Shown one piece after another: positions 1,805 to 50,245 of a DNA stretch of 58,411 nucleotides; position 1 is the first letter of the stretch, and every line of letters starts with the position of its first letter. Both the position numbers and the translations under genes were made by a program. Origin of the DNA: Candidatus Solincola daggyaiensis (GTDB taxonomy: Bacteria > Actinomycetota > Geothermincolia > Geothermincolales > RBG-13-55-18). The DNA lies in the NCBI GenBank assembly GCA_015711825.1, contig JACVJD010000004.1, forward strand, positions 1 to 58,411, in the 5' to 3' direction. Under the pieces are notes generated by a model. The model was not told where the DNA came from, did no database searches, and worked only from the letters and a program-made list of their open reading frames with translations.

Positions 1805-3490
1805 TCATCGCGGGATGGCGCGGGCTACCTCCTCCGCCGAGGTCATCCCCTGCGCCACCTTCTTGACGGCGTTGCGCCACATGGTATCCATGCCCTCCTC
1901 CACCGCGCGGGACCTCACCTCCCTGGGATTGACCTGCGTGGTGGTGAGGGTCTTGATGCCCTCGCTCATGGGCATGACCTCGAAAACGCCGATACGGCCC
2001 TTATACCCCGTGTTGTTGCAGTACTTGCAACCCACGGGGCGGTAGAGGATGCCGCCGTCGGCGTCCTTTATCCCAAGCTGCTCCATCACCTCGGGGGAGG
2101 GAGTGTAGGCCTCCTTGCAGCGGGGGCACAGCTTTCTCACCAGCCTCTGGGCGATGATCGTCTTGACCACCTCCCGCACGTAGTAGGGCTCGATGCCCAT
2201 ATCCACCAGCCTGGGCACCGTCTCCGGCGCCCCGGTGGTGTGCAGGGTGCTCAGCAGGAGGTGCCCGGTGAGGGCGGCCTGCACCGATATGTGGGCGGTC
2301 TCCTTGTCCCTTATCTCCCCCACCAGGATGATGTCGGGGTCCTGGCGCAGCACCGACCTCAGGATGGTCGCGAAGTCGAGCCCGATCTTGTGGTTGACCG
2401 GTATCTGGTTCACCATCCCCAGGCGGTATTCCACCGGGTCCTCGATGGTGATTATCTTCCGGCTCACGTCGGAAAGCTCGTTGAGCACCGCGTAGAGGGT
2501 GGTGGTCTTGCCGCTTCCCGTGGGGCCGGTGACCAGGATGAAGCCGTGGGGCTCCTCCAGGGCCCTGAGCAGCTTACGCATGTCCGCGTCCTCCAGCCCC
2601 AGGTCCGCGAGGCTCACCCTCGCCTTGGACTGGTCCAGTATCCTGATGATCACCGCCTCCCCGTAGATGGTGGGGGCGGTGGCGACGCGGAAGTCCACGT
2701 CCTTGCCGCCGTACTTCACGAAGAAACGGCCGTCCTGGGGCAGGCGCCGCTCCGCGATGTTCAGCTCCGCGAGCACCTTCACCCGCGAGACCAGGGCGTT
2801 GAGCACCTCCACGGGCAGGATGCGGGCCTCCATGAGCACGCCGTCGATGCGGTATCTCACCCGCACCAGGTTCTCCTGCGGCTCGATGTGGATATCGCTG
2901 GCGCCCTCCTTGATGGCGCGGGTGAGGAGGAGGTTGACCAGCTTGACCACCGGCCCCTCGTCCACCCTCACCTCGTCCAGAGACTCGGGCGCGTAGCGGT
3001 CCACAAACTCCAGGTGGTCCTCGTCCCAATCCATGAGCTCGCTCTCCAGGCCGCCATGCTTGAAGAAGTAGTCGATGGCCTCGAGGATGTCCTCCTCATC
3101 GCTGAGGATAGGCTCCAGGGTGTATCCAGAGGCGAAGGCCAGCATGTCCAGTGAGGCGGTGTCGAAGGGGCAGCTCACCGCCACGGTGAGGATGTCGCCG
3201 ATGAGGGTGACGGGTATGGCCACCAGGTTCCTGGCCACGTTGGCGGGGATGAGCTTGACCGCCTCGGGGTCGATGAGATCCACGGAGAGCTTCACGTAGG
3301 GTATTTCCACATGGTTCGATATGAACTCCTTGAGCTGCTCGCGGGTGGTGAACCCCTCCTTTATCAGGACATCCTTGAGCCGCTGCCCGGTGGTCTTCTG
3401 CAGCTTGAGGGCTATTTCCAGCTGCTCCTGGGTGATCATGCCCTTCTCCACCAGGACGCTTCCCAGCCCGCCGTCCACGTTTCCGGTCAT
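1805..3490 (-). CDS. GspE/PilB family type II/IV secretion ATPase
   Basis: N-terminal MshEN-like LGSVLVEKGMIT, ASDIHIEP, Walker A GPTGSGKTTT, RQDPDIILVGEIRD, LSTLHT and a Cys4 zinc motif. Confidence 0.95.
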   Translation of the reverse strand: MTGNVDGGLGSVLVEKGMITQEQLEIALKLQKTTGQRLKDVLIKEGFTTREQLKEFISNHVEIPYVKLSVDLIDPEAVKLIPANVARNLVAIPVTLIGDILTVAVSCPFDTASLDMLAFASGYTLEPILSDEEDILEAIDYFFKHGGLESELMDWDEDHLEFVDRYAPESLDEVRVDEGPVVKLVNLLLTRAIKEGASDIHIEPQENLVRVRYRIDGVLMEARILPVEVLNALVSRVKVLAELNIAERRLPQDGRFFVKYGGKDVDFRVATAPTIYGEAVIIRILDQSKARVSLADLGLEDADMRKLLRALEEPHGFILVTGPTGSGKTTTLYAVLNELSDVSRKIITIEDPVEYRLGMVNQIPVNHKIGLDFATILRSVLRQDPDIILVGEIRDKETAHISVQAALTGHLLLSTLHTTGAPETVPRLVDMGIEPYYVREVVKTIIAQRLVRKLCPRCKEAYTPSPEVMEQLGIKDADGGILYRPVGCKYCNNTGYKGRIGVFEVMPMSEGIKTLTTTQVNPREVRSRAVEEGMDTMWRNAVKKVAQGMTSAEEVARAIPR

Positions 3491-3532: not shown

Positions 3533-3940
3533 CTAGCCTTCCTTTCCGCGCGCCGTCAGGCTGGCCTCTCCCGCCAGCTCCTCCACCTTGCGCATGAACT
3601 CCTCGCGCTCCTCCGGCCTCGCCGGCTTGGGAAGGTAGAGGTCGGCTCCCGCCTCCATAGCCACCCGGTGGTAGTTCTGTTTCATGTAGATGGCGCTGGT
3701 CATCACCACCGGCGTGCGCTCCTCGTCCTCCAGCTCGCGGATGTTCTCCACCAGCTTGAAGCCGTTCATCTTGGGTATGAGGCAGTCCGTGACCACCACG
3801 TCGGGCTTGTCGGCAAGGAACCTTCGCAACGCCTGCTCGCCGTCCCGGGCGACGATGACCTCGTGGCCCCTGGCCTCGAGGGCGTCCTTGGTCACCTGCA
3901 GGATGAGCTCCGAGTCCTCGACCAGAAGAATGCGGGCCAT
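3533..3940 (-). CDS. Single-domain response regulator receiver (CheY-like)
   Basis: ILLVEDS, VVVTDCLIPKMNG (phospho-Asp), YLPKP. No output domain. Confidence 0.9.
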   Translation of the reverse strand: MARILLVEDSELILQVTKDALEARGHEVIVARDGEQALRRFLADKPDVVVTDCLIPKMNGFKLVENIRELEDEERTPVVMTSAIYMKQNYHRVAMEAGADLYLPKPARPEEREEFMRKVEELAGEASLTARGKEG

Positions 3941-4143
3941 CTTCCCTCACCCCTCTTCCGCGCTTTTTCGCCTTTGCGCATGCCTGCGTCTCCTCACGCA
4001 TCCTGTTCGCGTTGCGGTGATATAGGCTCCGGCGGAGGCTTGCCGCCGCGTCCCCCTGCGAGGCCGCTCCCATATCTTTCCGGCTGAACCGCGACGGAGT
4101 AAACGCTTACACTCTCGATATCGTTCGCGTTTACCGAAGGTTA

Positions 4144-4183
4144 ATAGCCCGAGCGGGTGATTGAAATCACCCGCTCGGGCTAT
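4144..4183. terminator. Perfect 18-bp inverted repeat, probable terminator of the minus-strand operon
   Basis: ATAGCCCGAGCGGGTGAT-TGAA-ATCACCCGCTCGGGCTAT, about 130 nt downstream of the stop at 4312. U-tract weak. Confidence 0.55.
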
Positions 4184-4311
4184 AGCCGCGCCGGACCGCC
4201 GCGCAGAGGTCGCCGCCGCGACCGCGTATGGGGCATCAGGCGCGGTTTCGGCGGCGTGGTGGGCCCGCGGGGGCCCCGCGCCGGCGCCGAAACCGCGCCC
4301 TGGGGACCGCC

Positions 4312-4506
4312 TCAGGCGTAATAGCGGCCCGGCAGGTAGGGCACCTGTTTGAGGAGGTGCAGGATGAATCTTTTCCTGGACTCGTCCAGCCGGGTGAACT
4401 GGAGGGCGAGCAGGGCCGCGAGGCAGGCCAGGATCAAGAGTGCCGCCTTCCTCCCCCTTCCTTTTCCGCCTCCACTCAGGTCATCGGCGTTCTCTTTCTT
4501 AAGCAT
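4312..4506 (-). CDS. Small single-TM membrane protein (64 aa), paralog of 12469..12618
   Basis: GGGAGGGAG RBS before ATG 4506. Basic N-terminus, hydrophobic AALLILACLAALLAL, C-terminus RFILHLLKQVPYLPGRYYA. Confidence 0.75.
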   Translation of the reverse strand: MLKKENADDLSGGGKGRGRKAALLILACLAALLALQFTRLDESRKRFILHLLKQVPYLPGRYYA

Positions 4507-4669
4507 GTCTCCCTCCCGGGTTCCCAAAACTCCATATGCTACCTTTTGCCGCACAAGTCAAGCGCCATTCATGGGTATTCCTTCCAGGAAAGAAGGACCG
4601 GCGCTCTCACACCGTACTCACGCCATCACCTTCTTGGTGCCGCGTTGAAGCCACCGGCCACCATCGCGC

Positions 4670-6166
4670 TCACTCGTATTTCTCGATGAGCTTGGAGGCG
4701 ATATACCCGGAGGCCACCGCCGAGGGCACTCCCCCGCCGGGGTGGGTGGAGGCCCCGGTGAGGTAAAGGCCCCGGATGGTCTTGGACCTGGCCGCGGGGC
4801 GGAACACCGCCTGGGCGGGAAGGTCCATCTGCAGGCCGTAGATGGCCCCGCCGGGCGAGAGCAGCCGACGCTCGAAATCCAGCGGGGTCGAAACCTCCAG
4901 CACCTTCACGTGGTCCTTAAGCCCGGGGATGGCCTTCTCGGAGAGGCCCTCGATCATGCGCTCCGCCACGCGCTGTTTCTCGCGGTCCCAATCGGTGCCC
5001 GAGAGCTTGTAGGGCCCCATGCCCATGATATTGAGGACGTGGCAGCCCTCCGGGGCCATGGAGGGGTCGGACTCCGTGGGCCAGCAGATGAGGCCGTGCA
5101 CCTGCTCCGGGATCTCCCCGCGCCGGTACTCGTTCCACCAGAAGTCGTTCATCATCTCCAGGGGCCCGATGGTCAGGCTGTGGTGGGCCTCCAGGGGCGG
5201 CCGGTAGTCGAGCCCCACGTAGAGCATGACGCAGGACATGGAGACCTCGTAGCTCTTGATGCCGAAGCGCGCCAGCCAGGGCAGGTGCTCCTCGCCGATC
5301 ATCTCCAGGTAGAGCTTCTTGGCGTTGATATTGGAGACCACCAGGTCGGAGGTGATCTCGCTGCCGTCCGCCAGCCGCACCCCCTGCACCCTGCGGTCGC
5401 GCACCATCACCTTTTCCACCCGCGTGCCGAGGCGCACCTCCATGCCCAGCTTCTCTCCGCAGCGCCGGAAGGCCTGGGGGATCTGGATCATGCCCCCGCG
5501 CGGGTACCAGATGCCCTCGTGCTCGGAGTAGGGGATGAGGGCGATGAACCCGGGTGCCAGCTCCGGCGGCAGGCCGCAGTAAAAGGACTGGAAGGACATG
5601 GTCTGCTGCACCACGTCGTTCTTGAAGTACTTCTTGATCACGTCCTGGTAGCTGGTGACGAAGAGGGGGAGGAACTTGAGCATGCGCGGGTTCTTCAGGC
5701 CCATCTTCACCATGTCCAGCATGTTGTTGCAGGGGTTGGTGAAGAAGGCCTCGATGGTCTGCTTCATCATCTCCGCGAAGTAGTCCGCGAGCTGGTACCA
5801 CTGCTTGCCGTCCTCGGGGGAGATGGACGAGATCACCTCCGCCGTCCCCTCCAGGGAGACGGGGTAATTGACCCGGGACCCGTCCTCGAAGATGTAGCTG
5901 TAGATGGGGTCGCAGGGCATGAGGTCCACTTCCTTCCGGAAGGAGGTGCCCAGGGTCTCGAAGGCCTTCTCTATGGGGTGGATGACCTCCACGATGGAGG
6001 CCCCCACGTCGAAGTGAAAGCCCTCCCTCTCGAAGGTGGAGCAGCATCCCCCCACGCGCTCGCTCTGCTCCAGGACCAGCACCTTGCGCCCCTGCTTGGC
6101 CAGCAGGGAGCCGGCGGAGATGCCTCCGCACCCCGCCCCGATCACGATCACGTCGTAGTCCGCCAT
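4670..6166 (-). CDS. Phytoene dehydrogenase-like (COG1233/CrtI family) FAD oxidoreductase
   Basis: YDVIVIGAGCGG dinucleotide fold, GGCCSTFEREGFHFDVGAS, C-terminal LYLTGASTHPGGGVP. GGAGG RBS before ATG 6166. Confidence 0.9.
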   Translation of the reverse strand: MADYDVIVIGAGCGGISAGSLLAKQGRKVLVLEQSERVGGCCSTFEREGFHFDVGASIVEVIHPIEKAFETLGTSFRKEVDLMPCDPIYSYIFEDGSRVNYPVSLEGTAEVISSISPEDGKQWYQLADYFAEMMKQTIEAFFTNPCNNMLDMVKMGLKNPRMLKFLPLFVTSYQDVIKKYFKNDVVQQTMSFQSFYCGLPPELAPGFIALIPYSEHEGIWYPRGGMIQIPQAFRRCGEKLGMEVRLGTRVEKVMVRDRRVQGVRLADGSEITSDLVVSNINAKKLYLEMIGEEHLPWLARFGIKSYEVSMSCVMLYVGLDYRPPLEAHHSLTIGPLEMMNDFWWNEYRRGEIPEQVHGLICWPTESDPSMAPEGCHVLNIMGMGPYKLSGTDWDREKQRVAERMIEGLSEKAIPGLKDHVKVLEVSTPLDFERRLLSPGGAIYGLQMDLPAQAVFRPAARSKTIRGLYLTGASTHPGGGVPSAVASGYIASKLIEKYE

Positions 6167-6409
6167 TGCTCGACCTCCCGTTCCTCCCATGCGGTATCTT
6201 CGTTCACCGGTAAAAGGTCATCCCTCATCCCTGCGCAAGGGATAGAGGGGCCCATGGCCTTACGAAGTCCCGCCCTCCCGGCGTTCCCTTCATCTCCATC
6301 CATGCCCCCTCCCCGGTTGCGGAGGGGCCGCGCCCTGACCCTCCCGCGGCCGCCGCTCCCGCCCGCTTTCCGGTTGCGCGCTTTCCGCCTCGCCACAGAA
6401 GCCTGCGCC

Positions 6410-8023
6410 TCAAAGCGCCGCCTTCTTCATGCGCAGCGTCTCGTAGTCGAAACGGCGCATGCAGATGTTGTTGGGGTCGTAGATCATCTTCATGTCCCGG
6501 TAGGTGTCCACGTAGGTCCCCGCCTGGGGGAAGATGAAGCCGATGAGGTCGTGCAGGGGCCCCGCTCCCTCCACCAGCGCCCACACCCCGAAGCATATCC
6601 CGGAGCCGTTGCGGAAGGAGGCGGCCATGGCCGCCAGGGTCCCGGAGATGGTGCGCAGGCTGTCCTCGGGATTGGACTGGTCGATGAAGATGTCGAACTC
6701 GATGAAGCCCAGCCTCCCCATGTCGTAGGGCTGGAAATAGGTGGCGATGAGGTCGGCGGAGATGACGTTGTCGTCCGTCCCCACCTGCTGGGTCATGGCC
6801 CGCATCATGTCGCTGTTGATCTTCACCAGGTTGTCCAGGTGATCGAGGCCGAAGCCCACGAAGAAGGAGCCTTTCACCCGCTGCACGCGCACCGACTCGC
6901 GGAAGAATTTGGTAAATTTATCCACACCGAGGATGCGCCCCTCGGAGATGTCCTCCACCACCTCCCAGTCCATGAACTCGAACTCCGGCGCCACCGCCAG
7001 GATGTCCTCCTCGCACACCTTGCACTTGACCTCCGTCTCCTCCTCGGAGTATCCCCCGGTCACCGGCACCACGTAATGCCGCGGGAACATGGGTATGAGC
7101 TTGGAGGACTCGGCGTTGGTCTCGGCGAGGAAGATGCCCATGTAGGTGTTCTGGAAATAGGCGTTCTCGATGACGATGTTGCGCTGGCTGATGGCCTTGA
7201 GGGCGGGCGCGATGTGGTCCCAGCTCTCGGAATCGCTGATGGGCACGGTGAGCTTGACGTGATCGGGGTTAGGGTAAAGGCGCAGGGTCATCTCGGTGAT
7301 GATGCCCATGGTGCCCATGGAGCCGCGGATAAAGGCGCGCACGTCCGGGCCGGGACCGGGCATGTGCGCGGGGTCGGCCCCGTACGCCCTCGGCCCTCCC
7401 ACCATCACCTGACCCTCGGGGAGCACGATCTTGTAGCCGATGATGTGGTCCAGCCCCACCCCGTACTTGTTGGCCAGGGTGGAGATGTTGCCCATCATGA
7501 TGTTGGAGACCACCGAGGCGTTGGCGGAGGTGGAGGGGTTGATGAGGCGCAGCCCGCGCTTGAGGGTCTCCGTCTGCAGCTGGGCGAAGGTCACCCCGGG
7601 GCCGATGGTGCAGAACATGTTCTCCTCGTCGATCTCGAGGATCTCGTCCATGCGGCGCATGTCGCAGAGGAGTCCGCCGTAGGGCGGTATGGTCATGCCC
7701 AGGGTGTTAAGGCCCGTCCCGTAGGGGGTGACGTCTATGAGATATTTGTTGGCGATCTTCATTATCGCCACCACGTCCTCCGTGGAGCCGGGCAGGGCCA
7801 CGATATGGGGGTGGTTCATGGGCACCACGGACTGGTCTCGCGCGTAGGCCACGGTGATGTTGATGTCGTCGGAGACCCACTCCTCGCCCAGCGCCTCCTG
7901 GAGCTCGCGGTAGGCCTTCTCCAGGTTCTCGGGCAGGTTGTGGGTGCCGTCGATCTCGTGCTTCACCGGCACCTTGATGATCTTGCGCTCCCGCAGGTCC
8001 TTCTGAAGGTCCTTTCCCTTCAC
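6410..8023 (-). CDS. FAD-binding oxidoreductase (FAD_binding_4; GlcD/VAO-like)
   Basis: PHIVALPGSTEDV, PYGTG, IGPGVTF, GSMGTMGIITEMT, C-terminal YDPNNI. GTG start after AAGGAGGT. Confidence 0.85.
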   Translation of the reverse strand: MKGKDLQKDLRERKIIKVPVKHEIDGTHNLPENLEKAYRELQEALGEEWVSDDINITVAYARDQSVVPMNHPHIVALPGSTEDVVAIMKIANKYLIDVTPYGTGLNTLGMTIPPYGGLLCDMRRMDEILEIDEENMFCTIGPGVTFAQLQTETLKRGLRLINPSTSANASVVSNIMMGNISTLANKYGVGLDHIIGYKIVLPEGQVMVGGPRAYGADPAHMPGPGPDVRAFIRGSMGTMGIITEMTLRLYPNPDHVKLTVPISDSESWDHIAPALKAISQRNIVIENAYFQNTYMGIFLAETNAESSKLIPMFPRHYVVPVTGGYSEEETEVKCKVCEEDILAVAPEFEFMDWEVVEDISEGRILGVDKFTKFFRESVRVQRVKGSFFVGFGLDHLDNLVKINSDMMRAMTQQVGTDDNVISADLIATYFQPYDMGRLGFIEFDIFIDQSNPEDSLRTISGTLAAMAASFRNGSGICFGVWALVEGAGPLHDLIGFIFPQAGTYVDTYRDMKMIYDPNNICMRRFDYETLRMKKAAL

Positions 8024-8190
8024 CTCCACCACCTCCTTACGGTATCGGGGATCTGCCCTTCGCGATGCTGATCGCCCACGCCGCAAGCGGGGGTTCGTCT
8101 TTGAGAGCTGCTCCCAGTCACCGATCCCTTAACGCCGGGGCAAAGAAGACGGGCGCCGGGGAGCGTCGGCCTTGCATCCAGGAGTTTCAT

Positions 8191-9390
8191 TCAAACCACC
8201 TCCCCCAGGCCGTTAGCCAGCGCCTCGAAGATGTCATAGACAGGCAGATCCCCCGCGGCGGCGAAATGGTCCTCGCAGTGGGGGCAGGCGGTGACGACGG
8301 CCTCGGCGCCCACCTCCCGCGCCTCCTCCAAGCGTTCCGCCGCCGTCCAGGCCGCCAGGTCGGGCTTGGCGGCTCGCACCCCTCCTCCGGCGCCGCAGCA
8401 CCAGGAGTTCTCGCGCTTGCGCTGGAACTCCAGCAGCTCCAGCCCCGGCACCGCCGCCAGCAGCCTGCGCGGCTGCTCGTATATCTCGCACCAGCGTCCC
8501 AGCATGCAGGGATCGTGGTAGGCGGCCTTGAGGGAGCTTTCCCCCTCGAAGCGCAGGGCCTTCTTCCTGAGCGCCCTGGAGAGGAGCTCCGTAGGATGTA
8601 CCACCTCCAGGTCCATGACCCGCCCGTACTCGTCCCGCAGGACCTGCAGGCAGTGGGGGCAGGCGGCGATGACGCGCTTGGCCCCGGTGGAGCGGAAGAG
8701 CTCGATGTTCTCGAGGGCATGCTCCTCGAAGCCGTCGCGATCCCCCAGAGCGAGGTTGAAGCTGCGGCAGCAGGGCTCCGCGTCGCCCAGCACCCCCACC
8801 TCCAGGCCCGCCGCCTTGAGCACCCGCACCATGGCGGCGAGCCTCTTGCGCATGGGTTCGCCGGCGGCGTAGGCGCATCCCACGAAGAGCAGGTTCTCGG
8901 CCTTTTCCCTGCCCAGGTCCTTCACCTCCAGGTCCTTCACCGCCTCTCCCTTGAAGCCCTTTTCCAGGCCGAAGGGGTTGTCCTCGGCGGCGGTGGAATC
9001 GAGCATGGCGCGGTGTCCCTCCAGGGGGCCCCATCCCTCCTCCACCGCCTTCTCCCGCATGAGCTGGATGATGCGCGTGGTGTGCAGTCCCTTGAGGGGA
9101 AAGCACATCTCCTGGCAGAGTCCGCAGAGGTTGCAGGAATAGATTATCTCCGCCGTCTTGGGGGTAGGCTCGAACTCCAGGTTGGTGAGGGCGCGGGCGA
9201 TCTCCATCATGCCGGCGGCGTAGTAGGACTCGAAGCGGTAACGGGTGCCGCAAGGACAGTTGTAGGAGAAGCGCGCGCTCTCGAACACCTGCACGTTCAT
9301 GGACTGGCACATCTTGCACTTTCCGCACACCCAGTAGTCGTCGCGGTAATCGGTGAGCTTCTCCCTTTTCCTGGTCAGTCCCCTCTCCAT
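8191..9390 (-). CDS. Fe-S oxidoreductase with CCG domains (GlcF/HdrD-like)
   Basis: CGKCKMC and CNLCGLCQEMC ferredoxin motifs; FVGC, EPCC, ACPHC, YHDPC, CCGAGGG, TACPHC. Confidence 0.9.
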   Translation of the reverse strand: MERGLTRKREKLTDYRDDYWVCGKCKMCQSMNVQVFESARFSYNCPCGTRYRFESYYAAGMMEIARALTNLEFEPTPKTAEIIYSCNLCGLCQEMCFPLKGLHTTRIIQLMREKAVEEGWGPLEGHRAMLDSTAAEDNPFGLEKGFKGEAVKDLEVKDLGREKAENLLFVGCAYAAGEPMRKRLAAMVRVLKAAGLEVGVLGDAEPCCRSFNLALGDRDGFEEHALENIELFRSTGAKRVIAACPHCLQVLRDEYGRVMDLEVVHPTELLSRALRKKALRFEGESSLKAAYHDPCMLGRWCEIYEQPRRLLAAVPGLELLEFQRKRENSWCCGAGGGVRAAKPDLAAWTAAERLEEAREVGAEAVVTACPHCEDHFAAAGDLPVYDIFEALANGLGEVV

Positions 9391-9393
9391 GGC

Positions 9394-10764
9394 CTACACC
9401 CCCTCCATGAGCTGACCGGGGTTGAGCAAACCCTTGGGGTCCATCACCCGCTTGAGGTTCCTGATGAGACGGATGTTCTCGGGGTCCATGCGGGAATAGA
9501 CCAGCTCCGCCACCTCGCCGCGGGGCCGGTTGACGTGCGCTCCCCGGTCGAGGACGGAGCGGTAGGCCCGCAGCCAGGCCTCGCGCGCCCCGCCGTCCCC
9601 CTCCTGGTGGTGGATATCCGTCTCGCAGTAGAAGGCGGCGCCGTAATAGGAGGGTATGGCCACCCGCCCCAGGGGATACCCGCCCGCCGCCTCCTCCACC
9701 GCCGCGAAGAGCGCCGCCGCCTTGCCGGCGAAGGTGAAATAGTCCACCGTGGTGAGGTCGCCGCGGTAATAGGCGCGCTGCGAGAGGTACCACGGCCACT
9801 CGAACTTCTCCTCCATGCGGCGCGCCAGCTCCCCGTCCCCCACCTTTCCGCCGCAGGAAAGGGCCATCTCCCGCGTCTGCCGGTCCCAGATCTCCACCAG
9901 GGAGGGATGGTTGTCGAAACCGAAGACCACGCTCCATGCCGGCAGCTCGCCCGCCAGGGAGTCCGCCTCCTCCGCGCTGCCGCTGAGGAGCACGGAGAGG
10001 TAGCGCCGGTCGGCCGCCACGCACTCGAAGACCTGGTCGTGGCGGGAGGCCAGCCGCGCCGCCTTTATCGCCTGCTCCGCGTCCTCGAAGGCGTAAGCGG
10101 TGACCCGCCTTTCCTCCCAGCGCTTATAGATCCACGCCTTCATGGCGTAGGGCATGCCGAAGATGTCTTCGCTGGCATGGAATAAATTGGAATACATGGG
10201 CCCGAGGTCCTCGCGGAACTCCGAGTGCCCGTCGGGGGTATACTGGTCGGTGCCGCTCATCCACAGGCGCCCGTCGGCCAGGATGGCGTGGAAGGTGGTG
10301 AACTGGTAGGGGCGGGTGGCCCCGTTGGCCAGGATGACGTCGCGGTCGATGTAGGAGCGCACGATGGAGGAGGAGGTCGCCGCGGCGGGCATGAGTATCC
10401 TGAGGCCGCGGGCGTCCAGCTCGCGCTTCAGCTCCTCGAAGGTGACGCCGTATTCCACGAAGGCCAGCAGGTTGGCCTCGTCTATGCGCACGATGCGGTC
10501 GATGCCCCTGAGGTCCACCAGCACCCCCCCGGACTCCGCCACCCCGGGGTCCACGAAACCGCGGCGGTGGGTGAAGATGGGGATGTCGTTTTCGTAGGCG
10601 CAGGAGGCGATGTCCGCCAGCTCCAGATTGTCGCGCGGCAGCGCCAAAGCCAGGTCCAGCCGCGGTGGGGGTTGCCTGAAATACGGCTTGAGGGCCTCCG
10701 CTCCCTCCCGGATCACTCCCTTTCCCACTGCATCCTTGAGCTTCTCGCCGGTCCTGACGCTCAT
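9394..10764 (-). CDS. FAD-binding oxidoreductase (GlcD/GlcE-like)
   Basis: GGVLVDLRGIDRIVRID, VEYGVTF, C-terminal LKRVMDPKGLLNPG. Strong RBS. Confidence 0.85.
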   Translation of the reverse strand: MSVRTGEKLKDAVGKGVIREGAEALKPYFRQPPPRLDLALALPRDNLELADIASCAYENDIPIFTHRRGFVDPGVAESGGVLVDLRGIDRIVRIDEANLLAFVEYGVTFEELKRELDARGLRILMPAAATSSSIVRSYIDRDVILANGATRPYQFTTFHAILADGRLWMSGTDQYTPDGHSEFREDLGPMYSNLFHASEDIFGMPYAMKAWIYKRWEERRVTAYAFEDAEQAIKAARLASRHDQVFECVAADRRYLSVLLSGSAEEADSLAGELPAWSVVFGFDNHPSLVEIWDRQTREMALSCGGKVGDGELARRMEEKFEWPWYLSQRAYYRGDLTTVDYFTFAGKAAALFAAVEEAAGGYPLGRVAIPSYYGAAFYCETDIHHQEGDGGAREAWLRAYRSVLDRGAHVNRPRGEVAELVYSRMDPENIRLIRNLKRVMDPKGLLNPGQLMEGV

Positions 10765-10855
10765 CCTTCCACCTCCCCTATCTCCAGGGCGCTCCCCTGT
10801 CGCCCTGCCGCTTCACGCTCCTTCTCGAACCCGGGTCTCCGCGCCCCGGGGTGTC

Positions 10856-12298
10856 CTAATCCCCATGCCCATTTCCCCGGCACGGCGCCTCGGCGCCTCG
10901 CCTTCCCGCCCTCGCCCGCCGCAAGCCGTAGCCGGCCAGGGCCCAGGCGGCGTCCACGCACCTCTCCACCGAGTCGTAAACCGGCACCCCCATGCCCTCC
11001 AGGGCGCTGCACCAGCGCCTGCGGTCCACCTCCGAGGCCCCTAGGAAACAGGCCAGCAGCGGCTTCTCCGGGTGTTGCTCCTTGACCTCGCAGAGCAGGG
11101 CCGCGGCGTCGAACTCCGATTCCGGCACCAGGGTGAACACCGCCATGAGCATGTGCATGTTTCTTTCCTCCGCGAAGGCGCGCAGGATGACGCGGTAGGC
11201 GTCCTCCACCGACCCCTGCAGGGTCGCGGCCCAGATGTCCATGGGGTTCAGCAGCCGCGCCCAGCCCGGCAATCCCTCCCCAGCCCTGCGCGCGGCCTGC
11301 GGCGAAGGCGCGGGCAGGCACAGCCCGCGGCGCTGGCAGGCGTCGGCCACCAGCACCGTGCCCGCCCCGGTGATGGAGACCACGCCCAGGTTGGGCCCCG
11401 CCGGCACCGGGCAATACGAAAGGGCCTTGGCCGCGTCGAAGAGGCCGTCGATACCGTCCACCGCGACGACCCCGGCCTGGGCCAGCGCCCCCCGCAGCAC
11501 CGCCTCCTCGCCGGCCATGGAGCCGGTGTGGCTGGCGGCCATCCTCCCGCCCAGCTCGCTGCGACCCCCTTTGAGCATCAGCACCGGCTTGCCCTCGGTG
11601 ACGCGCCGCGCCAGCTCCAGGAAATCCCTCCCTCTGTGCAGCCCCTCGGTATAGATGCATATGACCTTGGTGGCTTCGTCTTCCCCCAGGTATTCCAGCA
11701 TGTCCACCTCGTCCACGTCCGCCTTGTTGCCCAGGCAGGCGACCTTGGAGACGCCGAAGCGCTGGGTGGACGCTATCCAGCGCGCGAACCCCCCGGCGAA
11801 GAGCCCCGTCTGGGCGATGATGGAGATGTCGCCCTCTTGCAAGGGATCCAGGGTCATGAGGGAGGTGACGAATCCGGAGGAGGTGGAGATGGTGCCCACG
11901 CTGTTCGGCCCCATCATACGCACGCCGCGCTCCCGCGCCGCGTCCGCGAGCTGCTTTTGCATGGCCGCCCCCTCGGCTCCCGCGTCGGAATATCCCGCCG
12001 CGCACACGATGACCTTCCTCACTCCCGCGTCGGCGCAGTCGGCGACGAAGTCGAGCATGAGCTCCCTCGGCAGCACCCCCACCGCCACCTCCACCGGCTC
12101 GCCGATGTCGCGCAGGGAGGGAAAGGCGGGGACGCCCATGATCTCCCCCGCCCGGGGGTGGATGGCGTATATACGGCCTCGGTAGCCGAAGCGCAGGAGG
12201 TTGGACAGGGTGATGTTTCCCAGCTTCATGGAGGAGCCGGAAGCCCCCGCCACCGCCACACTGGAGGGGTTGAAGAAAGCTTCCATGGTGTGAGCCAA
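10856..12298 (-). CDS. ADP-forming acyl-CoA synthetase alpha-type subunit (CoA-binding protein)
   Basis: FFNPSSVAVAGAS, GPNSVG, LGNKADVDE, AASHTGSMAG phospho-His loop, NPMD. No ATP-grasp domain. Confidence 0.88.
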   Translation of the reverse strand: MAHTMEAFFNPSSVAVAGASGSSMKLGNITLSNLLRFGYRGRIYAIHPRAGEIMGVPAFPSLRDIGEPVEVAVGVLPRELMLDFVADCADAGVRKVIVCAAGYSDAGAEGAAMQKQLADAARERGVRMMGPNSVGTISTSSGFVTSLMTLDPLQEGDISIIAQTGLFAGGFARWIASTQRFGVSKVACLGNKADVDEVDMLEYLGEDEATKVICIYTEGLHRGRDFLELARRVTEGKPVLMLKGGRSELGGRMAASHTGSMAGEEAVLRGALAQAGVVAVDGIDGLFDAAKALSYCPVPAGPNLGVVSITGAGTVLVADACQRRGLCLPAPSPQAARRAGEGLPGWARLLNPMDIWAATLQGSVEDAYRVILRAFAEERNMHMLMAVFTLVPESEFDAAALLCEVKEQHPEKPLLACFLGASEVDRRRWCSALEGMGVPVYDSVERCVDAAWALAGYGLRRARAGRRGAEAPCRGNGHGD

Positions 12299-12468
12299 GC
12301 CTTACCCCCTGTCGCAACACGGTCATGGTCCCATCGGGCGGCCATGACCCGTCCCGCCTCGACCTCTGCGAAAGCGCCGCCCTTCACCCGCGCCGAGGCT
12401 TCCCGTTTACCTCTCCGACCCCCGCATGGGCGCCTGCCCCTCGGCCACGGCGCCCCTTCCCGCTTCGC

Positions 12469-12618
12469 CTATACGAAATAACGGAAGGGCATCTTGGGAA
12501 GCTGGGTGAGCAGGAGCTTGGCGTAGCGCCAGTCCGAGGGCTCGGTGGAAACGGCCAGCCAGGCAACCAAACCTCCCGCGGCGCCCAGCGTGATCATCGC
12601 TTTGGTTCTTCTTTTCAT
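12469..12618 (-). CDS. Small single-TM membrane protein (49 aa), not in the ORF track
   Basis: Read by hand: GGGAGGCGAGG-ATG, MKRRTKAMITLGAAGGLVAWLAVSTEPSDWRYAKLLLTQLPKMPFRYFV*. C-terminus aligns with the 4312..4506 protein. Confidence 0.75.
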   Translation of the reverse strand: MKRRTKAMITLGAAGGLVAWLAVSTEPSDWRYAKLLLTQLPKMPFRYFV

Positions 12619-12912
12619 CCTCGCCTCCCGTCACTCCAGGCCCTTCTGCAAAGCCGTTCTTGTCTTACCGCTTGGATGCGACCCGCAAGCGCCCGCCACC
12701 TCTCCCGCTCGCACCACCCCTTATTCCGGACCATGGTGGCGGCGAGCCCTTGCCCGCATCCGCCGCCAACCCGGCCGCCGGCCGCATCCAGGCCATCCCT
12801 CAGACGCCCCCCGGGCCTCGACCAACCTCACATGCGTTCCCGCCCGGCAAGACCTCCGCTCGGATCCGCCATTGACCACCGGGGCAGGCCGCGTCGTTCT
12901 CCTCCCTTGCCC

Positions 12913-14430
12913 CTAGGCGTTGTCCTTCACCACCAGCCCACCGGTGATGATCCCCCCCGCGACCACCGCCGGCACCCCTCCTCCGGGATGGGTGGAAGCC
13001 CCTGCGAGGTAAAGGTTCTTAATGCACTTGGAGCGGTTGGCGGGGCGGAACACCGCCATATGGCTGAGGTCGGTCTGGATGCCGTAAACGGCGCCGCCCG
13101 GGTGCAGGAGCATGCGCTCGAGGTCCTTGGGCGTGGCCATATCCCGGTACACCACGTGCTTGGAAAGATCTGGTATGATATAGCGTTCGATGGTGGCTAT
13201 GGCCTCGTCTATGTACCTCTCCTTGTAGCGGTCCCAGTCGTTGCCCGCCAGGTTGTAGGGGGCGAGTCCCATGTGGGTGAGCACGTGCTTGCCGGGCGGG
13301 GCCAGCGAGGGGTCGATCTTGGAGGCCCAGGAGATAAGCCCCATCACCTCCACGCGCCCGTCCTTTACGTACAGTTTCCCCTTGAGGTAATAGTCGCTCC
13401 AGTAGTCGTTCATGATCCTGGGGTCGGTTAAGGTGAGGGTGTGATGGGCGTTGAGGGGCGGCTCGTAATCTATGCCCAGGTAGATCATGGGACAGGGCAT
13501 GGAGAGCACCAGGGATCTCACGCCTCTCCACACATGCCAGGGGATATGCTCCCTGCCGATCATGTCCTCATAGAGCTTCTTGGCGTTGATCGCCCCCACC
13601 ACGTTGCGGGCGGTTATCTGCGTGCCGTCCCAGAGCTCCACGCCGACGGCCCTGCGCCCCTCCACCATCACCCGCACCACGCGAGCGTCGAAACGCGTCT
13701 CGCCGCCAAGGTCTTCGAAGGCCTGCCGGATGCCGGCGGGGATGCGTATCATCCCCCCCTCGGGGTAGTAGATGCCCTCGTGCTCCAGGAGCCCCACGAT
13801 GGCGTAGAGGCCGGCGCACATGTCCGGCGGCAGGCCGGCGTAGAAGGACTGGAAGGCCATGGAAGCCAGCACGTCGGCGTTCTTGAAATATCTGGCAACG
13901 ATCTTCTGGTGCGTGGTGACGAACATGGGAAGCACCGAGACCATCTGGGGGTACTTGGCGATCAGCCTGACGGTGTCCATGAAACCCAGGGACGGCGCGT
14001 AGAAGAAGTTGTCCACCAGCCCCTTTATCTTCGGGGTGTAGTCCTCGGCGAACTTCAGGAACGCCTTGGCGTCCTCGGGCGAGAACTCCGCGATCACCCG
14101 CGCCGTGTCCTCCACCGAGGTGGGGTAGGCAAAGCGCACCCCTCTGGTGTTGTCGCAATAATCGTATATGGGGTCCACGGGGATGAGGGGGATGTATCTC
14201 TCCCTCGGCATCTCCAGGCGTTTGAAGAGCTCGTCGAAGGCGCGCGTCACCTCCACCACGCTGGCCCCCACGTCGAAGTGGAACCCCTCCGCCTCGTAGG
14301 TGGAACAGCATCCTCCGATGCGGTTTGACTGTTCCAGCACCAGGGTCTTCATCCCCGCCTTCTGGCACAGCGCCGCCGCCGAAAGCCCGCCGATACCCCC
14401 GCCTATCACCACCACGTCGTAATCGGGCAT
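12913..14430 (-). CDS. Phytoene dehydrogenase-like (COG1233/CrtI family) FAD oxidoreductase
   Basis: YDVVVIGGGIGG, GGCCSTYEAEGFHFDVGAS, LYLAGASTHPGGGVP. Confidence 0.9.
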   Translation of the reverse strand: MPDYDVVVIGGGIGGLSAAALCQKAGMKTLVLEQSNRIGGCCSTYEAEGFHFDVGASVVEVTRAFDELFKRLEMPRERYIPLIPVDPIYDYCDNTRGVRFAYPTSVEDTARVIAEFSPEDAKAFLKFAEDYTPKIKGLVDNFFYAPSLGFMDTVRLIAKYPQMVSVLPMFVTTHQKIVARYFKNADVLASMAFQSFYAGLPPDMCAGLYAIVGLLEHEGIYYPEGGMIRIPAGIRQAFEDLGGETRFDARVVRVMVEGRRAVGVELWDGTQITARNVVGAINAKKLYEDMIGREHIPWHVWRGVRSLVLSMPCPMIYLGIDYEPPLNAHHTLTLTDPRIMNDYWSDYYLKGKLYVKDGRVEVMGLISWASKIDPSLAPPGKHVLTHMGLAPYNLAGNDWDRYKERYIDEAIATIERYIIPDLSKHVVYRDMATPKDLERMLLHPGGAVYGIQTDLSHMAVFRPANRSKCIKNLYLAGASTHPGGGVPAVVAGGIITGGLVVKDNA

Positions 14431-14475
14431 GACGCATTCCCCCTATACGGCTAGCGATACTGACTTAAGGATATT

Positions 14476-14504
14476 ATATTACTATCTATTTTTACGGTTT
14501 TCAA
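14476..14504 (-). promoter_or_regulatory. Sigma70-type promoter for the COG1233 operon
   Basis: Minus strand TTGAAA-17 nt-TAATAT (overlapping TATAAT) in an AT-rich island about 45 nt upstream of ATG 14430. Confidence 0.6.
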
Positions 14505-14864: not shown

Positions 14865-16070
14865 TCAGCGCAGGAACTGGATGACGACCTCCGCTCCCGC
14901 CTCCAGGCGCCCCACCTCTTCGGGAAGCACGGCCAGGGCGTTGCCGAGGACCATGGACTTGAGGATGCCGCTGCCCTGGGGCCCGGTGGGGCGAACGTGA
15001 TAGCGACCGTCCCGCCACTCCGCCACCACGCGGATGAACTCCGTCCTGCCCGCCTTCCTCCCCAGAGGGGCGTCGAGGATCGCGGTGGCCTGGGGCCGGA
15101 AGATGTCGCGGCGGCCCATCATCTTGAGGATGGCGGGACGGACGAACTGCTCGAAGGAGACCATCACCGAGACGGGGTTCCCCGGCAGACCGAAGAGCGG
15201 CTTGCCGCGGACGTGCCCGAAGGCCTGGGGCTTGCCGGGACGCATGGCCACCTTCCAGAAGTTCATCTCCCCCACCTTGCCCAGCACGTCCTTCACCATA
15301 TCGTAATCTCCCACCGACACGCCGCCGCTGGTCACGAAGAGGTCCACCTTCTCCAGGTTGTCGAGGATGGTCCTCTCCAGCAGGTCGGCGTCGTCGCGCA
15401 CCACCCCCAGGCGCAAGGGCTGCGCCCCCGCCTCGTGCACCATGCCGAAAACGGTGTAGCTGTTGGAGTCGCGGATCTTGCCCGGCGCCAGCTCTTCCTC
15501 TACCCCCACCAGCTCGTCCCCGGTGGAGATGATCCCCACCACGGCGCGGCGGAAACAGCGGGGCCGCGCGTAGCCGAGGCTGGCAAGCATTCCCAGCTCG
15601 GCGGGGCCTATGGCCGTCCCCGCCGCCATCACCGTCTCGCCGCTCTTCACGTCCTCCCCGGCGCGGCGCAGGTTGGCGCCTTTCTCCACCGCTTCCAGGA
15701 TAAGCACCCGTCCCCCCTCGCCGCGGGTAAGCTCCACCGGCACCACGGCGTCACAGCCCTCGGGCACGGGCGCGCCGGTCATGATGCGCAGGGCCTGCCC
15801 GGCTCGCAGCGCCACCTCTGGGGCGTGCCCCGCCGCCAGGTCTCCGAGCACTTCCAGCTCCGCGGGGCTTCCCTCGCGGGCTCCGGCCACGTCCTCCGAC
15901 CTCACCGCGTAGCCGTCCATGGCCGAGTTGTCGAAGGGGGGAATGTCTTCGCGCGCCACCGCGTCCTCCGCCAGGGTCATCCCCAGCGCCTCCAGTAGCG
16001 GCGTCTCCGCCGCCTCCAGCACGCTTACCGCGCTCAGCACCTTCTCCCTCGCCTCTTCCACGCTCAGCAT
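14865..16070 (-). CDS. moeA: Molybdopterin molybdo/tungstotransferase
   Basis: PPFDNSAMDGYAV, RIMTGAPVP, STGDEL, TSGGVSVGDYD, MRPGKP, GLPGNPVS. Confidence 0.95.
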   Translation of the reverse strand: MLSVEEAREKVLSAVSVLEAAETPLLEALGMTLAEDAVAREDIPPFDNSAMDGYAVRSEDVAGAREGSPAELEVLGDLAAGHAPEVALRAGQALRIMTGAPVPEGCDAVVPVELTRGEGGRVLILEAVEKGANLRRAGEDVKSGETVMAAGTAIGPAELGMLASLGYARPRCFRRAVVGIISTGDELVGVEEELAPGKIRDSNSYTVFGMVHEAGAQPLRLGVVRDDADLLERTILDNLEKVDLFVTSGGVSVGDYDMVKDVLGKVGEMNFWKVAMRPGKPQAFGHVRGKPLFGLPGNPVSVMVSFEQFVRPAILKMMGRRDIFRPQATAILDAPLGRKAGRTEFIRVVAEWRDGRYHVRPTGPQGSGILKSMVLGNALAVLPEEVGRLEAGAEVVIQFLR

Positions 16071-20280: not shown

Positions 20281-21102
20281 CTAGAAGCAGCCCAGGGAAC
20301 AGGCCACGATCTTCACGCCCAGGGCGTTGGCCGCCTTGCCCACCTCCAGGGTGGGGACCCCCAGCTCCTCGGCCAGCTTGAGGGCTACGGCGCAGGGGAT
20401 GCGTCCTTCCTCCGCCTTGGCCTTCACCGCCTCCAGGACCTTCTCCTCCACATCAGCGGACATGTGTTCACCTCCCAGTCTTGCCGCCGCGCGCGAGAGG
20501 ACCATCTCCCAGGCCCTCTCCCTTCCCAGCTCGCAGACCGCGACCAGCTTGGCGCGCGGGTTCAGCTCCTTTATCCTCCTCTCCAGCTCCAGCATCTCCC
20601 GGCCCGGCACGGCGCCTTCCCCGTTTATGACCACGGCGTGCGCCTTCCCGACGGCGCCGTAGGCCGATTCCTTGAAGCCCGCGAAGGTGGGCCCCATGAT
20701 GAACACGGCGTAGTCGGGCTCCAGGTGTGAGAGGACGCTGTTTCCCTCCACCACCACCACCGGTGCGTGCAGGCGCGAGAAGGCCTCCCGCAGGTCCGCC
20801 GCCAGCCCCTCCCGGGTGGAGCGCACCCAGAGCACGGGGCGCGCCCCCGCCGCCAGCAGGCGCGAGGTGTCCGTGGGAGGTGAGGAGGCCGGGTCCGTCT
20901 CCTCCAGGATGGCCTCTCCCGGCGGGCGTTGGGAGTGGATGGAGACCTTCATGCCCGCGCAGGCGCGGCAACGGCGGACCAGGTACGCGGCCAGGGAGCT
21001 CTTGCCGATATCCTTGTTGGCCCCGGAGATGGTGATGATGCGGGGCCTCTCGCGTCCCGAAAAAAGCCCGTCCGGAGAGGACGGGCGCGCATCGCTTCGC
21101 AT
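20281..21102 (-). CDS. MobB-like P-loop protein fused to a small C-terminal CxLGCF domain
   Basis: ITISGANKDIGKSS, TDTSRLLAAGA, VVEGNS. Last 60 aa run MSADVEE...RIPCAVA...CSLGCF. RBS is the 3' end of the riboswitch. Confidence 0.75.
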   Translation of the reverse strand: MRSDARPSSPDGLFSGRERPRIITISGANKDIGKSSLAAYLVRRCRACAGMKVSIHSQRPPGEAILEETDPASSPPTDTSRLLAAGARPVLWVRSTREGLAADLREAFSRLHAPVVVVEGNSVLSHLEPDYAVFIMGPTFAGFKESAYGAVGKAHAVVINGEGAVPGREMLELERRIKELNPRAKLVAVCELGRERAWEMVLSRAAARLGGEHMSADVEEKVLEAVKAKAEEGRIPCAVALKLAEELGVPTLEVGKAANALGVKIVACSLGCF

Positions 21103-21106
21103 ATGC

Positions 21107-21203
21107 CTCTCCTTTCCAAACACGGGAGGCGCAGGCGTTTCCATCTGCACCCTATCGGCCCGGCCCCCATAGCCGTCGCCTTAGGGAGCCGGGCTCGGAG
21201 AGC
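21107..21203 (-). ncRNA. Moco/Tuco riboswitch (P3-less variant)
   Basis: Minus strand CUCUCCGA-GCCCGGCUC-CCUAAG..UAUGG-GGGCCGGGC-CGAUAGGGU-GCAGAUG GAAA CGCCUGC-GCCUCCCG..GGAAAGGAGAG. Matches the Moco motif with an 11-nt tetraloop receptor, overlaps the RBS and precedes tup/moeA genes. Confidence 0.9.
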
Positions 21204-21398
21204 TCCTATATCAGGCTCTTCAAGCGAGGGTATTATAACGTGGAGAGCGCCGCGGCTTCAACGCCCTGTCCGGATCCGGCCGCCGCGCCGTGAAGGAGGG
21301 GGATGCCCGCTCCCTTTGATCTCGAAAAAAGCCGCCTGGGGAGCGGCGGGAGGTCTTCGGTAAGCCTGGGCACGAAAGCTCCCGCGCCCGACACCGGC

Positions 21399-49905: not shown

Positions 49906-50245
49906 GTATGCGCGCCGGGCCCCGTCCTCGCCATCGCTCGCCTTCGGCTCGCTTCCGTCTCGGCCACGGCGCCCTGCACCGTGCCGCCGCCCTCCGAAAG
50001 CCTCGCGCGAGCGTATGCGTGCCAGGCCCCGTCCTCGCCATCGCTCGCCTTCGGCTCGCTTCCGTCTCGGCCACGGCGCCCTGCACCGTGCCGCCGCCCT
50101 CCGAAAGCCTCGCGCGAGCGTATGCGTGCCAGGCCCCGTCCTCGCCATCGCTCGCCTTCGGCTCGCTTCCGTCTCGGCCACGGCGCTGGACACTGCCACG
50201 CCTCCCTACGGTCGGCGTGGTCGCTTTCGCGATGCAATCTTCCGT
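49906..50245. repeat. Intergenic array A: three copies of a structured core, 107-bp period
   Basis: Cores GTATGCG(T/C)GCC(A/G)GGCCCCGTCCTCGCC...CCGTCTCGGCCACGGCG start at 49906, 50013, 50120. Confidence 0.95.

Follow-up and report, generated by a model that had tools for sequence, protein, structure and literature searches.

What are two very short open reading frames (ORFs), each lying next to a gene for a CrtI-family flavoprotein, and do they belong to the enzymes beside them? This question is raised by contig JACVJD010000004.1 of Candidatus Solincola daggyaiensis, of which positions 1 to 58,411 were analysed; this whole stretch of 58,411 nucleotides is referred to below as the window. The two ORFs, designated pep1 and pep2, and their neighbours F1 and F2 are located as follows.

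4312..4506 (-): pep1, 64-aa ORF with ATG at 4506..4504; peptide cluster 17 (n = 24)
4509..4517 (-): Shine-Dalgarno-like sequence GGGAGGGAG of pep1, with a spacer to the ATG of 2 nt plus 'AC'
4670..6166 (-): F1, 498-aa CrtI-family flavin adenine dinucleotide (FAD) flavoprotein, cognate neighbour of pep1 at a gap of 163 nt
12469..12618 (-): pep2, 49-aa ORF with ATG at 12618..12616; peptide cluster 6 (n = 11)
12624..12629 (-): Shine-Dalgarno-like sequence GGGAGG of pep2, 5 nt ahead of the ATG
12913..14430 (-): F2, 505-aa CrtI-family FAD flavoprotein, cognate neighbour of pep2 at a gap of 294 nt

Both ORFs were first pointed out in a sequence-only reading of the window, and their positions and Shine-Dalgarno sites were confirmed, both ORFs being on the minus strand. 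F1 and F2 share 50% protein identity. pep1 consists of a basic N-terminal end of 20 residues, a hydrophobic run (AALLILACLAALLALQF) and a conserved tail that extends to ...KQVPYLPGRYYA-stop; pep2 has an MKRRTK start, a hydrophobic run and a tail to ...SDWRYAKLLLTQLPKMPFRYFV-stop. In BLASTP, the two peptides align without gaps with 14 of 46 residues identical (30%; E 2e-6), and the alignment reaches the last residue of both, which upholds the earlier claim that they are homologous with the same stop placement. This similarity is above chance, because each peptide has conserved relatives and a joint profile recovers 59 representatives. The relatives, 18 proteins for pep1 and 20 for pep2, are found in Actinomycetota metagenome-assembled genomes, some of which are named Candidatus Solincola, a genus of the class Ca. 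Geothermincolia.

The joint profile of both subfamilies was compared with 1.84 billion cluster representatives (50%-identity clusters) and gave 59 matches at E<=1e-3. In 57 of these, 34–125 aa long, a single stretch covers most of the protein; the remaining two, of 173 and 2365 aa, match in several short stretches each and look like chance hits. No fused peptide-flavoprotein form was found among the profile matches, none of which is of flavoprotein size. Codon comparison of orthologues in five subfamilies gave median dN/dS values of 0.11–0.31, and third codon positions hold about twice as many differences. The family is conserved in two phyla, also in lower-GC genomes. In a pooled census of 104 distinct copies, from which identical copies had been removed and to which the figures below refer, a Shine-Dalgarno-like word was present in 90 copies and an ATG start in 96. 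The view that both ORFs are real is thereby borne out.

No known family could be assigned, as had been suspected from the sequence. pep1 and pep2 have no match in Pfam-A or NCBIfam at E<=0.01, and among 53 members searched against Pfam and NCBIfam no family was matched by more than three; the best E values, 0.002–0.007, all belong to generic membrane-helix matches. The best match in the PDB is YajC (E 0.023, helix only), and ESM Atlas look-alikes of pep1 have a best score of 0.82, with none at or above 0.9. Ten divergent representatives are all annotated as 'hypothetical protein' or are nameless, bar one with an odd 'LptC' label, and half of the family members are missed or nameless in current annotations. 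By these comparisons, pep1 and pep2 are confirmed as genuine small proteins of a previously uncatalogued family. In a full-text literature search, made blind to the sequences, neither the peptide family nor any small partner of CrtI-family enzymes was found described, and Geothermincolia were not found together with 'phytoene desaturase'. A paper on an anaerobic-benzene flavoprotein makes no mention of the peptide family, and the Ca. Solincola genome paper makes none of the peptide-pair genes. The family, its partner and the co-duplicating pairs are new, while the concept of a small single-helix partner protein is already known.

The relationship with the flavoproteins was assessed from gene neighbourhoods, adjacency being defined in the pooled census as a crtI-family gene on the same strand within 650 nt of the peptide gene. 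By this definition, 101 of the 104 copies adjoin a crtI-family gene, which lies upstream only in 46 cases, on both sides in 31 and downstream only in 24. In a collection of species genomes, 15 of 16 peptide loci have a crtI-family gene ending just upstream, and the sixteenth is cut by the contig end. A metagenome scan, restricted to a motif based on a five-sequence alignment, added 16 further loci, in all of which (16/16) the peptide gene is situated 14–154 nt upstream of an F1-like gene. In a second phylum (see below), all 21 real copies are downstream of a crtI-family gene. Chance adjacency is estimated at about 0.4% by our own arithmetic from approximately 20 COG1233-like loci in a 3.0 Mb genome. 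A profile-based check of linkage had been proposed with the sequence-only reading, for which homologues independent of COG1233 genes would have been the counter-evidence; the check came out in favour of linkage (101/104 and 16/16), and independence was seen in only 3 of 104 copies. The peptide gene may be downstream, upstream or between two flavoprotein genes, so that 'directly downstream', as originally described, holds for pep1 and pep2 and fails as a rule for the family. The near-constant adjacency to one CrtI-like clade of anaerobic bacteria suggests that the peptides are small dedicated subunits.

The peptide subfamilies were then set against the paralogues of the flavoprotein. In the window's genome, which is 95% complete, tblastn found six loci that match F1 over its full length with an identity of 35% or more; the COG1233-like loci beyond these, about 14 in number, are more distant. 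The genome has four peptide copies; five of the six close paralogues adjoin a peptide gene, and F4 and the approximately 14 distant loci do not. Members of this set other than those listed above are:

50257..51753 (-): F4, fourth close paralogue, 61% identical to F1, with no adjoining peptide gene in the window's genome
contig C41, 6861..7001 (-): third peptide copy, between paralogues F5 and F6 (locus L004)
contig C26, 28624..28743 (+): fourth peptide copy, a weaker match, 28 nt upstream of paralogue F3

Across genomes, the peptide types are associated with flavoprotein types as follows.

pep1 type, 24 copies: F1- or F4-type gene upstream in 23
pep2 type, 11 copies: F2-type gene upstream in 11
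pep3 type, 24 copies: F5-type gene upstream in 19 and F6-type gene downstream in 21, with median gaps of 16 and 28 nt
pep4 type, 14 copies: F3-type gene downstream in 14, never upstream

Each peptide subfamily therefore keeps its own flavoprotein paralogue, indicating that the pairs were duplicated as units. A genome labelled Deltaproteobacteria likewise has a pep2-like/F2-like pair, with 71% identity to F2, and F4-type genes accompanied by a pep1-type peptide were found at two loci in other genomes. In the window, the space immediately after F4, where the F4 paralogues have their peptide gene, is taken up by a tandem repeat at 49906..50186 (2.6 copies of a 107-nt unit, 98% matches). A distant COG1233-like gene at 54920..56419 (-), 28% identical to F1, also has no peptide alongside.

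Duplication of the peptide gene by itself was observed at a few loci. L017, from a close relative whose F1 orthologue is 94% identical, carries two tandem near-identical pep1-type genes (3941..4084 and 4105..4236, both +) at the place of the single pep1 of the window, and L035 likewise has two peptide genes in tandem. At L100, L103 and L104, a second, very divergent peptide gene is found about 200 nt past the first, in the order flavoprotein-peptide-peptide; the product of this gene ends ...TKPNLRYYL.QTLKD.KY.YYRYHV-stop.

The distribution was examined in 401 genomes of the window's phylum and 401 genomes of a second phylum, that of the Deltaproteobacteria-labelled genome. In the first sample, the peptide is present in 22 of 32 genomes of the class, at 1–5 copies each, and matches outside the class are confined to 3 of 369 genomes, two of the three being partial and inside long ORFs. 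Fifteen genomes of the second-phylum sample match, two of them by partial hits inside long ORFs. Presence of the peptide coincides with that of the enzyme: within the class, all 22 peptide-bearing genomes have an F1 match at E<=3.9e-158, and the 10 peptide-less genomes have none better than 4.9e-114, related genomes not being independent in either count. Peptide-bearing genomes contain 3–17 flavoprotein paralogues.

The anatomy of the peptides is uniform in its C-terminal part. The 104 copies are 43–70 aa long (median 50). The N-terminal end is variable and usually basic, with a median of 7 residues (20 in pep1), and is followed by an uncharged hydrophobic run of 12–27 residues (median 18), usually closed by W, Y or F. 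The tail after this run has 20–29 residues, of which the last 24 positions are free of indels relative to the stop and follow the pattern L-D/S-E-S-K/R-K/R-R-F/Y-x-x-H-L-x-K-Q-x-P-Y-L/M-P-x-R-Y-F/Y-[AVI]-stop. Counted from the stop, Arg(-4) is found in 104/104 copies, Pro(-6) in 90%, Arg(-19) in 87% and Tyr(-3) in 85%. Information content amounts to 2–4.3 bits per position in the tail versus 1–2 bits in the helix. Conservation is thus concentrated in the extramembrane tail, which fits a specific protein contact.

One subfamily carries, immediately ahead of the hydrophobic helix, an acidic Cys/His-rich N-terminal extension with the motif C-x-H-x(3,4)-C-x-x-C and additional Cys residues. Its members are encoded at loci L022, L024, L030, L032 and L127–L129 and include proteins P0049 and P0054; their genes are upstream of the flavoprotein gene. 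The motif suggests that this extension could be a metal site.

Identification of F1 and F2 as COG1233 proteins in the sequence-only reading proved correct, as both exceed the curated cut-off of 238 bits for TIGR02734 (crtI_fam), with 334.1 and 293.2 bits, respectively. Both have an N-terminal FAD Rossmann fold and an Amino_oxidase domain. Neither reaches a carotenoid-desaturase equivalog (CrtID 244 versus 640; CrtD 209 versus 580). Phytoene/squalene synthase (PF00494) was not found in the window's genome, at 95% completeness, and was found in 0 of 41 class genomes by a search that was positive in 8 of 14 reference genomes used as a control. Desaturation of an endogenous carotenoid or squalene is therefore unlikely. 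Assignment to the carotenoid desaturases proper (CrtI/CrtD/CrtN) was rejected on both grounds, the equivalog scores being far below the cut-offs and the synthase not being found in the class genomes. With CrtI carotenoid desaturases, F1 and F2 have in common the family score, the Rossmann fold and the Amino_oxidase domain, and they differ in the equivalog level, in the lack of the synthase and in the number of paralogues per peptide-bearing genome.

The gene context of the pairs changes from one subfamily to the next. The operon with genes for an ADP-forming acyl-CoA synthetase (ACD) and GlcDEF-like proteins accompanies the F1 and F2 orthologues of close relatives only and not the other peptide subfamilies; ACD follows pep2 in 8 of 11 cluster-6 loci, and a GlcD-like gene precedes F1 orthologues. 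Neighbours of pep4-F3 encode an enoyl-CoA hydratase, a Zn-dependent alcohol dehydrogenase, a HAD hydrolase, a TetR regulator and two acyl-CoA dehydrogenases, and those of F5-pep3-F6 a MerR/TetR regulator and an enolase-superfamily protein. In two Desulfobacterota genomes (L135 and L137), a bare TetR-flavoprotein-peptide unit, duplicated in L135, is set among genes for a tadA-like deaminase, dnaX, ybaB and recR. Another Desulfobacterota genome has a row of three flavoprotein genes, the peptide gene, and genes for a SnoaL-like protein, a short-chain dehydrogenase/reductase (SDR) and DUF362 proteins. What stays the same across these contexts is only the flavoprotein-peptide unit, which is often accompanied by a TetR-type regulator. 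The TetR, beta-oxidation-type, acyl-CoA synthetase and GlcDEF-like dehydrogenase genes point to transformation of a lipophilic or CoA-activated compound as the probable function.

On comparative grounds, it is established that the peptide is a conserved microprotein genetically and evolutionarily tied to its own CrtI-like flavoprotein. As to what it does, on balance we favour a small membrane-associated subunit that would bind the cognate flavoprotein via the conserved C-terminal tail. Each peptide would then be the dedicated partner of the CrtI-family flavoprotein encoded next to it. Of the roles offered in the sequence-only reading (small subunit, membrane anchor or substrate carrier), that of a carrier finds no specific backing. 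A short hydrophobic helix would reside in, or on, the cytoplasmic membrane, and an aromatic residue and a basic cluster (..W/Y..L-D-E-S-K/R-K/R-R-F/Y..) would mark the membrane interface. The C-terminal tail with its invariant register (..K-Q-x-P-Y/x-L/M-P-x-R-Y-F/Y-[AVI]-COOH) may dock onto the cytoplasmic flavoprotein, and docking may either keep the enzyme, peripheral and lipid-directed, at the membrane or supply the missing part of a hydrophobic substrate or quinone site. CrtI-type enzymes are membrane-peripheral, a point also cited in PMC11061730. A tail-bound and helix-anchored subunit is proposed because the conserved tail has a fixed length, the pairs have co-duplicated and fusions were not found. 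The binding itself, the placement of the peptide at the membrane and its orientation there, and the task of the tail are what we infer from the sequences here. A farther-reaching version, which we regard as doubtful, would make the microproteins obligate subunits and the hallmark of a new class of CrtI-like enzymes that are docked at the membrane and often heteromeric, with strict anaerobes (Geothermincolia, Desulfobacterota and others) as hosts. In this version, a free C-terminal Arg-Tyr-Phe hook would reach into the flavoprotein at the flavin, the substrate tunnel or a quinone site, a lipophilic substrate could not be converted without it, and every duplicated enzyme would have evolved a peptide of its own.

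Several observations weigh against a membrane-anchored dedicated subunit. The helix is short and marginally insertable: a crude insertion energy over 19 residues falls below 0 kcal/mol in 21 of the 104 copies and stays under 2 kcal/mol in 52 of them, with values of 0.56 kcal/mol for pep1 and 1.98 kcal/mol for pep2. The term 'membrane peptide' used in the sequence-only reading is hence plausible as such and has to be qualified by the median helix length of 18 and by these marginal energies. An amphipathic juxtamembrane helix was considered and rejected, the moment of 0.37 not being significant against 0.29 for shuffles. Topology is ambiguous, with both flanks of the hydrophobic run basic; the C-terminal flank is richer in K/R in 75 of 104 copies and so not in all. 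The N-terminal end of pep1 is a charged stretch of 20 residues, and one subfamily has the Cys/His-rich extension. Three of the 104 copies have no crtI-family gene within 5–8 kb. Finally, flavoproteins outnumber peptides (6 versus 4 in the window's genome and 17 versus 5 in genome G159), and F4 has no peptide; the peptide is therefore not needed by every member of the clade.

The last of these facts is also the starting point for an alternative that we consider unlikely and yet the most serious one, in which the peptide would help or regulate the flavoprotein transiently and would not anchor it in fixed stoichiometry. It might assist assembly or FAD loading, serve as a switch of activity, or bridge two flavoprotein paralogues in a heteromer. 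The surplus of flavoproteins would suit such a role, as would the position of the pep3 gene, which is wedged between two different paralogues at median distances of 16 and 28 nt, and the marginal hydrophobicity of the helix in many copies. Moreover, those COG1233 enzymes of catabolism that have been characterised each combine two paralogues in a heteromer, as CtmAB and the alpha4beta4 delta-24 desaturase do (PMC4109377 and PMC11061730). Against it, the sequences have the usual composition of a membrane helix, with a uniform stretch of some 18 uncharged residues that leads into an aromatic residue and a basic cluster, and the Desulfobacterota-type copies are strongly hydrophobic (median -2.7 to -3.8 kcal/mol). 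A further proposal starts from the aromatic C-terminus with its exact placement and invariant register: the ribosome could make the peptide as a precursor, and the flavoprotein could oxidise or otherwise modify its conserved C-terminal Arg-Tyr-Phe/Tyr end, yielding a product or cofactor derived from the peptide. The shortness of the ORF, its place next to a redox enzyme and the extra Cys/His of one subfamily would agree with this. However, conservation of the whole 24-residue tail together with variability of the hydrophobic helix is the reverse of a leader/core pattern, the pairs occur as 1–5 paralogues per genome, and no radical-SAM enzyme, peptidase, cyclase or exporter is encoded next to the examined pairs. 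We also know of no CrtI-family enzyme that modifies peptides, and we hold a precursor role to be improbable.

An independent small membrane protein that merely shares transcripts with the flavoprotein, with no contact between the two, seems at least equally improbable. It would account for the three copies that stand alone, and the gaps of 163 and 294 nt in the window are roomy enough for separate signals. Adjacency nevertheless outlasts changes of gene order, phylum and surrounding genes, the peptide subfamilies follow the flavoprotein paralogues, and a minimal TetR-flavoprotein-peptide unit is maintained among housekeeping genes. Least of all can the two ORFs be regarded as chance open frames in GC-rich DNA. 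Spurious long ORFs are indeed numerous in all frames of the window; against this explanation stand the conservation of the protein over two phyla and in lower-GC genomes, the dN/dS values, the fixed stop position and the Shine-Dalgarno sites, which render it hardly credible.

The membrane-associated subunit favoured here may be compared with known systems. Small single-helix accessory proteins of membrane enzyme complexes and transporters include CydX, which acts with cytochrome bd, AcrZ, which acts with AcrB, and KdpF. The peptides resemble these in size, in having a single hydrophobic helix and in being encoded beside the partner; the 104 copies stay under about 70 aa with one hydrophobic helix, 101 of 104 and 16 of 16 copies adjoin the gene of the presumed partner, and subfamilies follow paralogues. 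No sequence relation of such accessory proteins to the peptides was found in searches of Pfam, NCBIfam and the PDB. The peptides differ from them in their presumed partner, a flavoprotein of soluble or peripheral type, in the site of conservation, a 24-residue extramembrane tail and not the helix, and in their co-duplication with the enzyme, which has produced several cognate pairs per genome. To our knowledge, no small partner protein has been described for CrtI.

MftA and PqqA are precursors of peptide-derived cofactors. The resemblance to such precursors consists in a very short ORF by a redox enzyme and a conserved aromatic C-terminus; the peptides are distinguished by the hydrophobic helix, the lack of maturation genes nearby, the reversed conservation pattern and the multiple paralogous pairs. 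Classification as a precursor of a ribosomally synthesised and post-translationally modified peptide or peptide cofactor was rejected, as the tail is conserved and the N-terminal part variable, and as no maturation enzyme is present among the examined neighbours, which comprise acyl-CoA synthetase, GlcDEF-like proteins, TetR, enoyl-CoA hydratase, acyl-CoA dehydrogenase, alcohol dehydrogenase, SDR, SnoaL and DUF362 proteins.

Within COG1233, the nearest biochemical precedents found belong to anaerobic hydrocarbon and steroid catabolism: limonene dehydrogenase CtmAB is a heteromer of two paralogues (PMC4109377) and the delta-24 steroid desaturase an alpha4beta4 heteromer of paralogues (PMC11061730). 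What they share with the present loci is that COG1233 paralogues are encoded side by side in catabolic contexts. Downstream of ctmB, Castellaniella has two orphan hypothetical genes, ctmC and ctmD, which are stated in PMC4109377 to have no database relatives and to be undetected in the proteome; they are candidates for a link with the peptide family. The enzymes of this class carry covalent flavin mononucleotide (FMN) at the His of a motif G-F-L/R-x-N/S-T/L-H-A (PMC11061730). F1 and F2 read G-F-H-F-D-V-G-A at this place, with Gly replacing the FMN-binding His in a by-eye comparison with the quoted motif. On this by-eye comparison, assignment of F1 and F2 to the CtmAB/delta-24 desaturase class was rejected.

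CrtI-like flavoproteins are abundant and multi-copy in uncultured anaerobes (3–17 per peptide-bearing genome) and are routinely mislabelled 'phytoene desaturase' in genomes without a phytoene-making synthase. A co-duplicating microprotein marks one specific clade among them and, as a well-supported family, lengthens the short list of small proteins whose partner is defined. It is predicted that the enzyme may fail or mislocalise when expressed heterologously alone. As half of the members are missed or nameless, a profile of the peptide could improve gene calling.

In the window, the two pairs are separated by four genes on the same strand (6410..12298), identified by profile scans.

10856..12298 (-): ADP-forming acyl-CoA synthetase alpha (ACD)
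9394..10764 (-): GlcE-like FAD_binding_4 protein
8191..9390 (-): GlcF/CCG iron-sulfur protein
6410..8086 (-): GlcD-like FAD_binding_4 protein

The layout is therefore F2-pep2-ACD-GlcE'-GlcF'-GlcD'-F1-pep1, which is probably one operon. A promoter-like site precedes F2 at 14504..14476 (-), and a weak hairpin is present between F1 and pep1 at 4614..4599 (-), both from a scan at the level of shuffled sequence; since promoter and terminator counts were no higher than in shuffled sequence, they are not counted as evidence. Rfam gave no match in or near the F1-pep1 and F2-pep2 intergenic gaps. Among public sequencing runs, no RNA run with this genome was listed, and the shares were small (0.02–0.06). 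Contigs of three runs cover the conserved enzyme genes over 4200..14500, and their cover of the peptide genes is none (bin 4200–4543) or trivial; the sources are relatives about 90% alike.

Just downstream of pep1, a stand-alone response-regulator receiver is encoded at 3533..3940 (-) (Pfam), and such a gene is present there in 4 of 24 pep1-type loci. It is followed at 1805..3490 (-) by an ORF for a putative GspE/PilB-type secretion ATPase, named by reading the translation only. On the other side of the pairs, the ORF at 14865..16070 (-), named in the same way, appears MoeA-like, and a molybdenum/tungsten cofactor riboswitch (RF01055) is located at 21094..21212 (-), with 88.6 bits versus a gathering score of 36.

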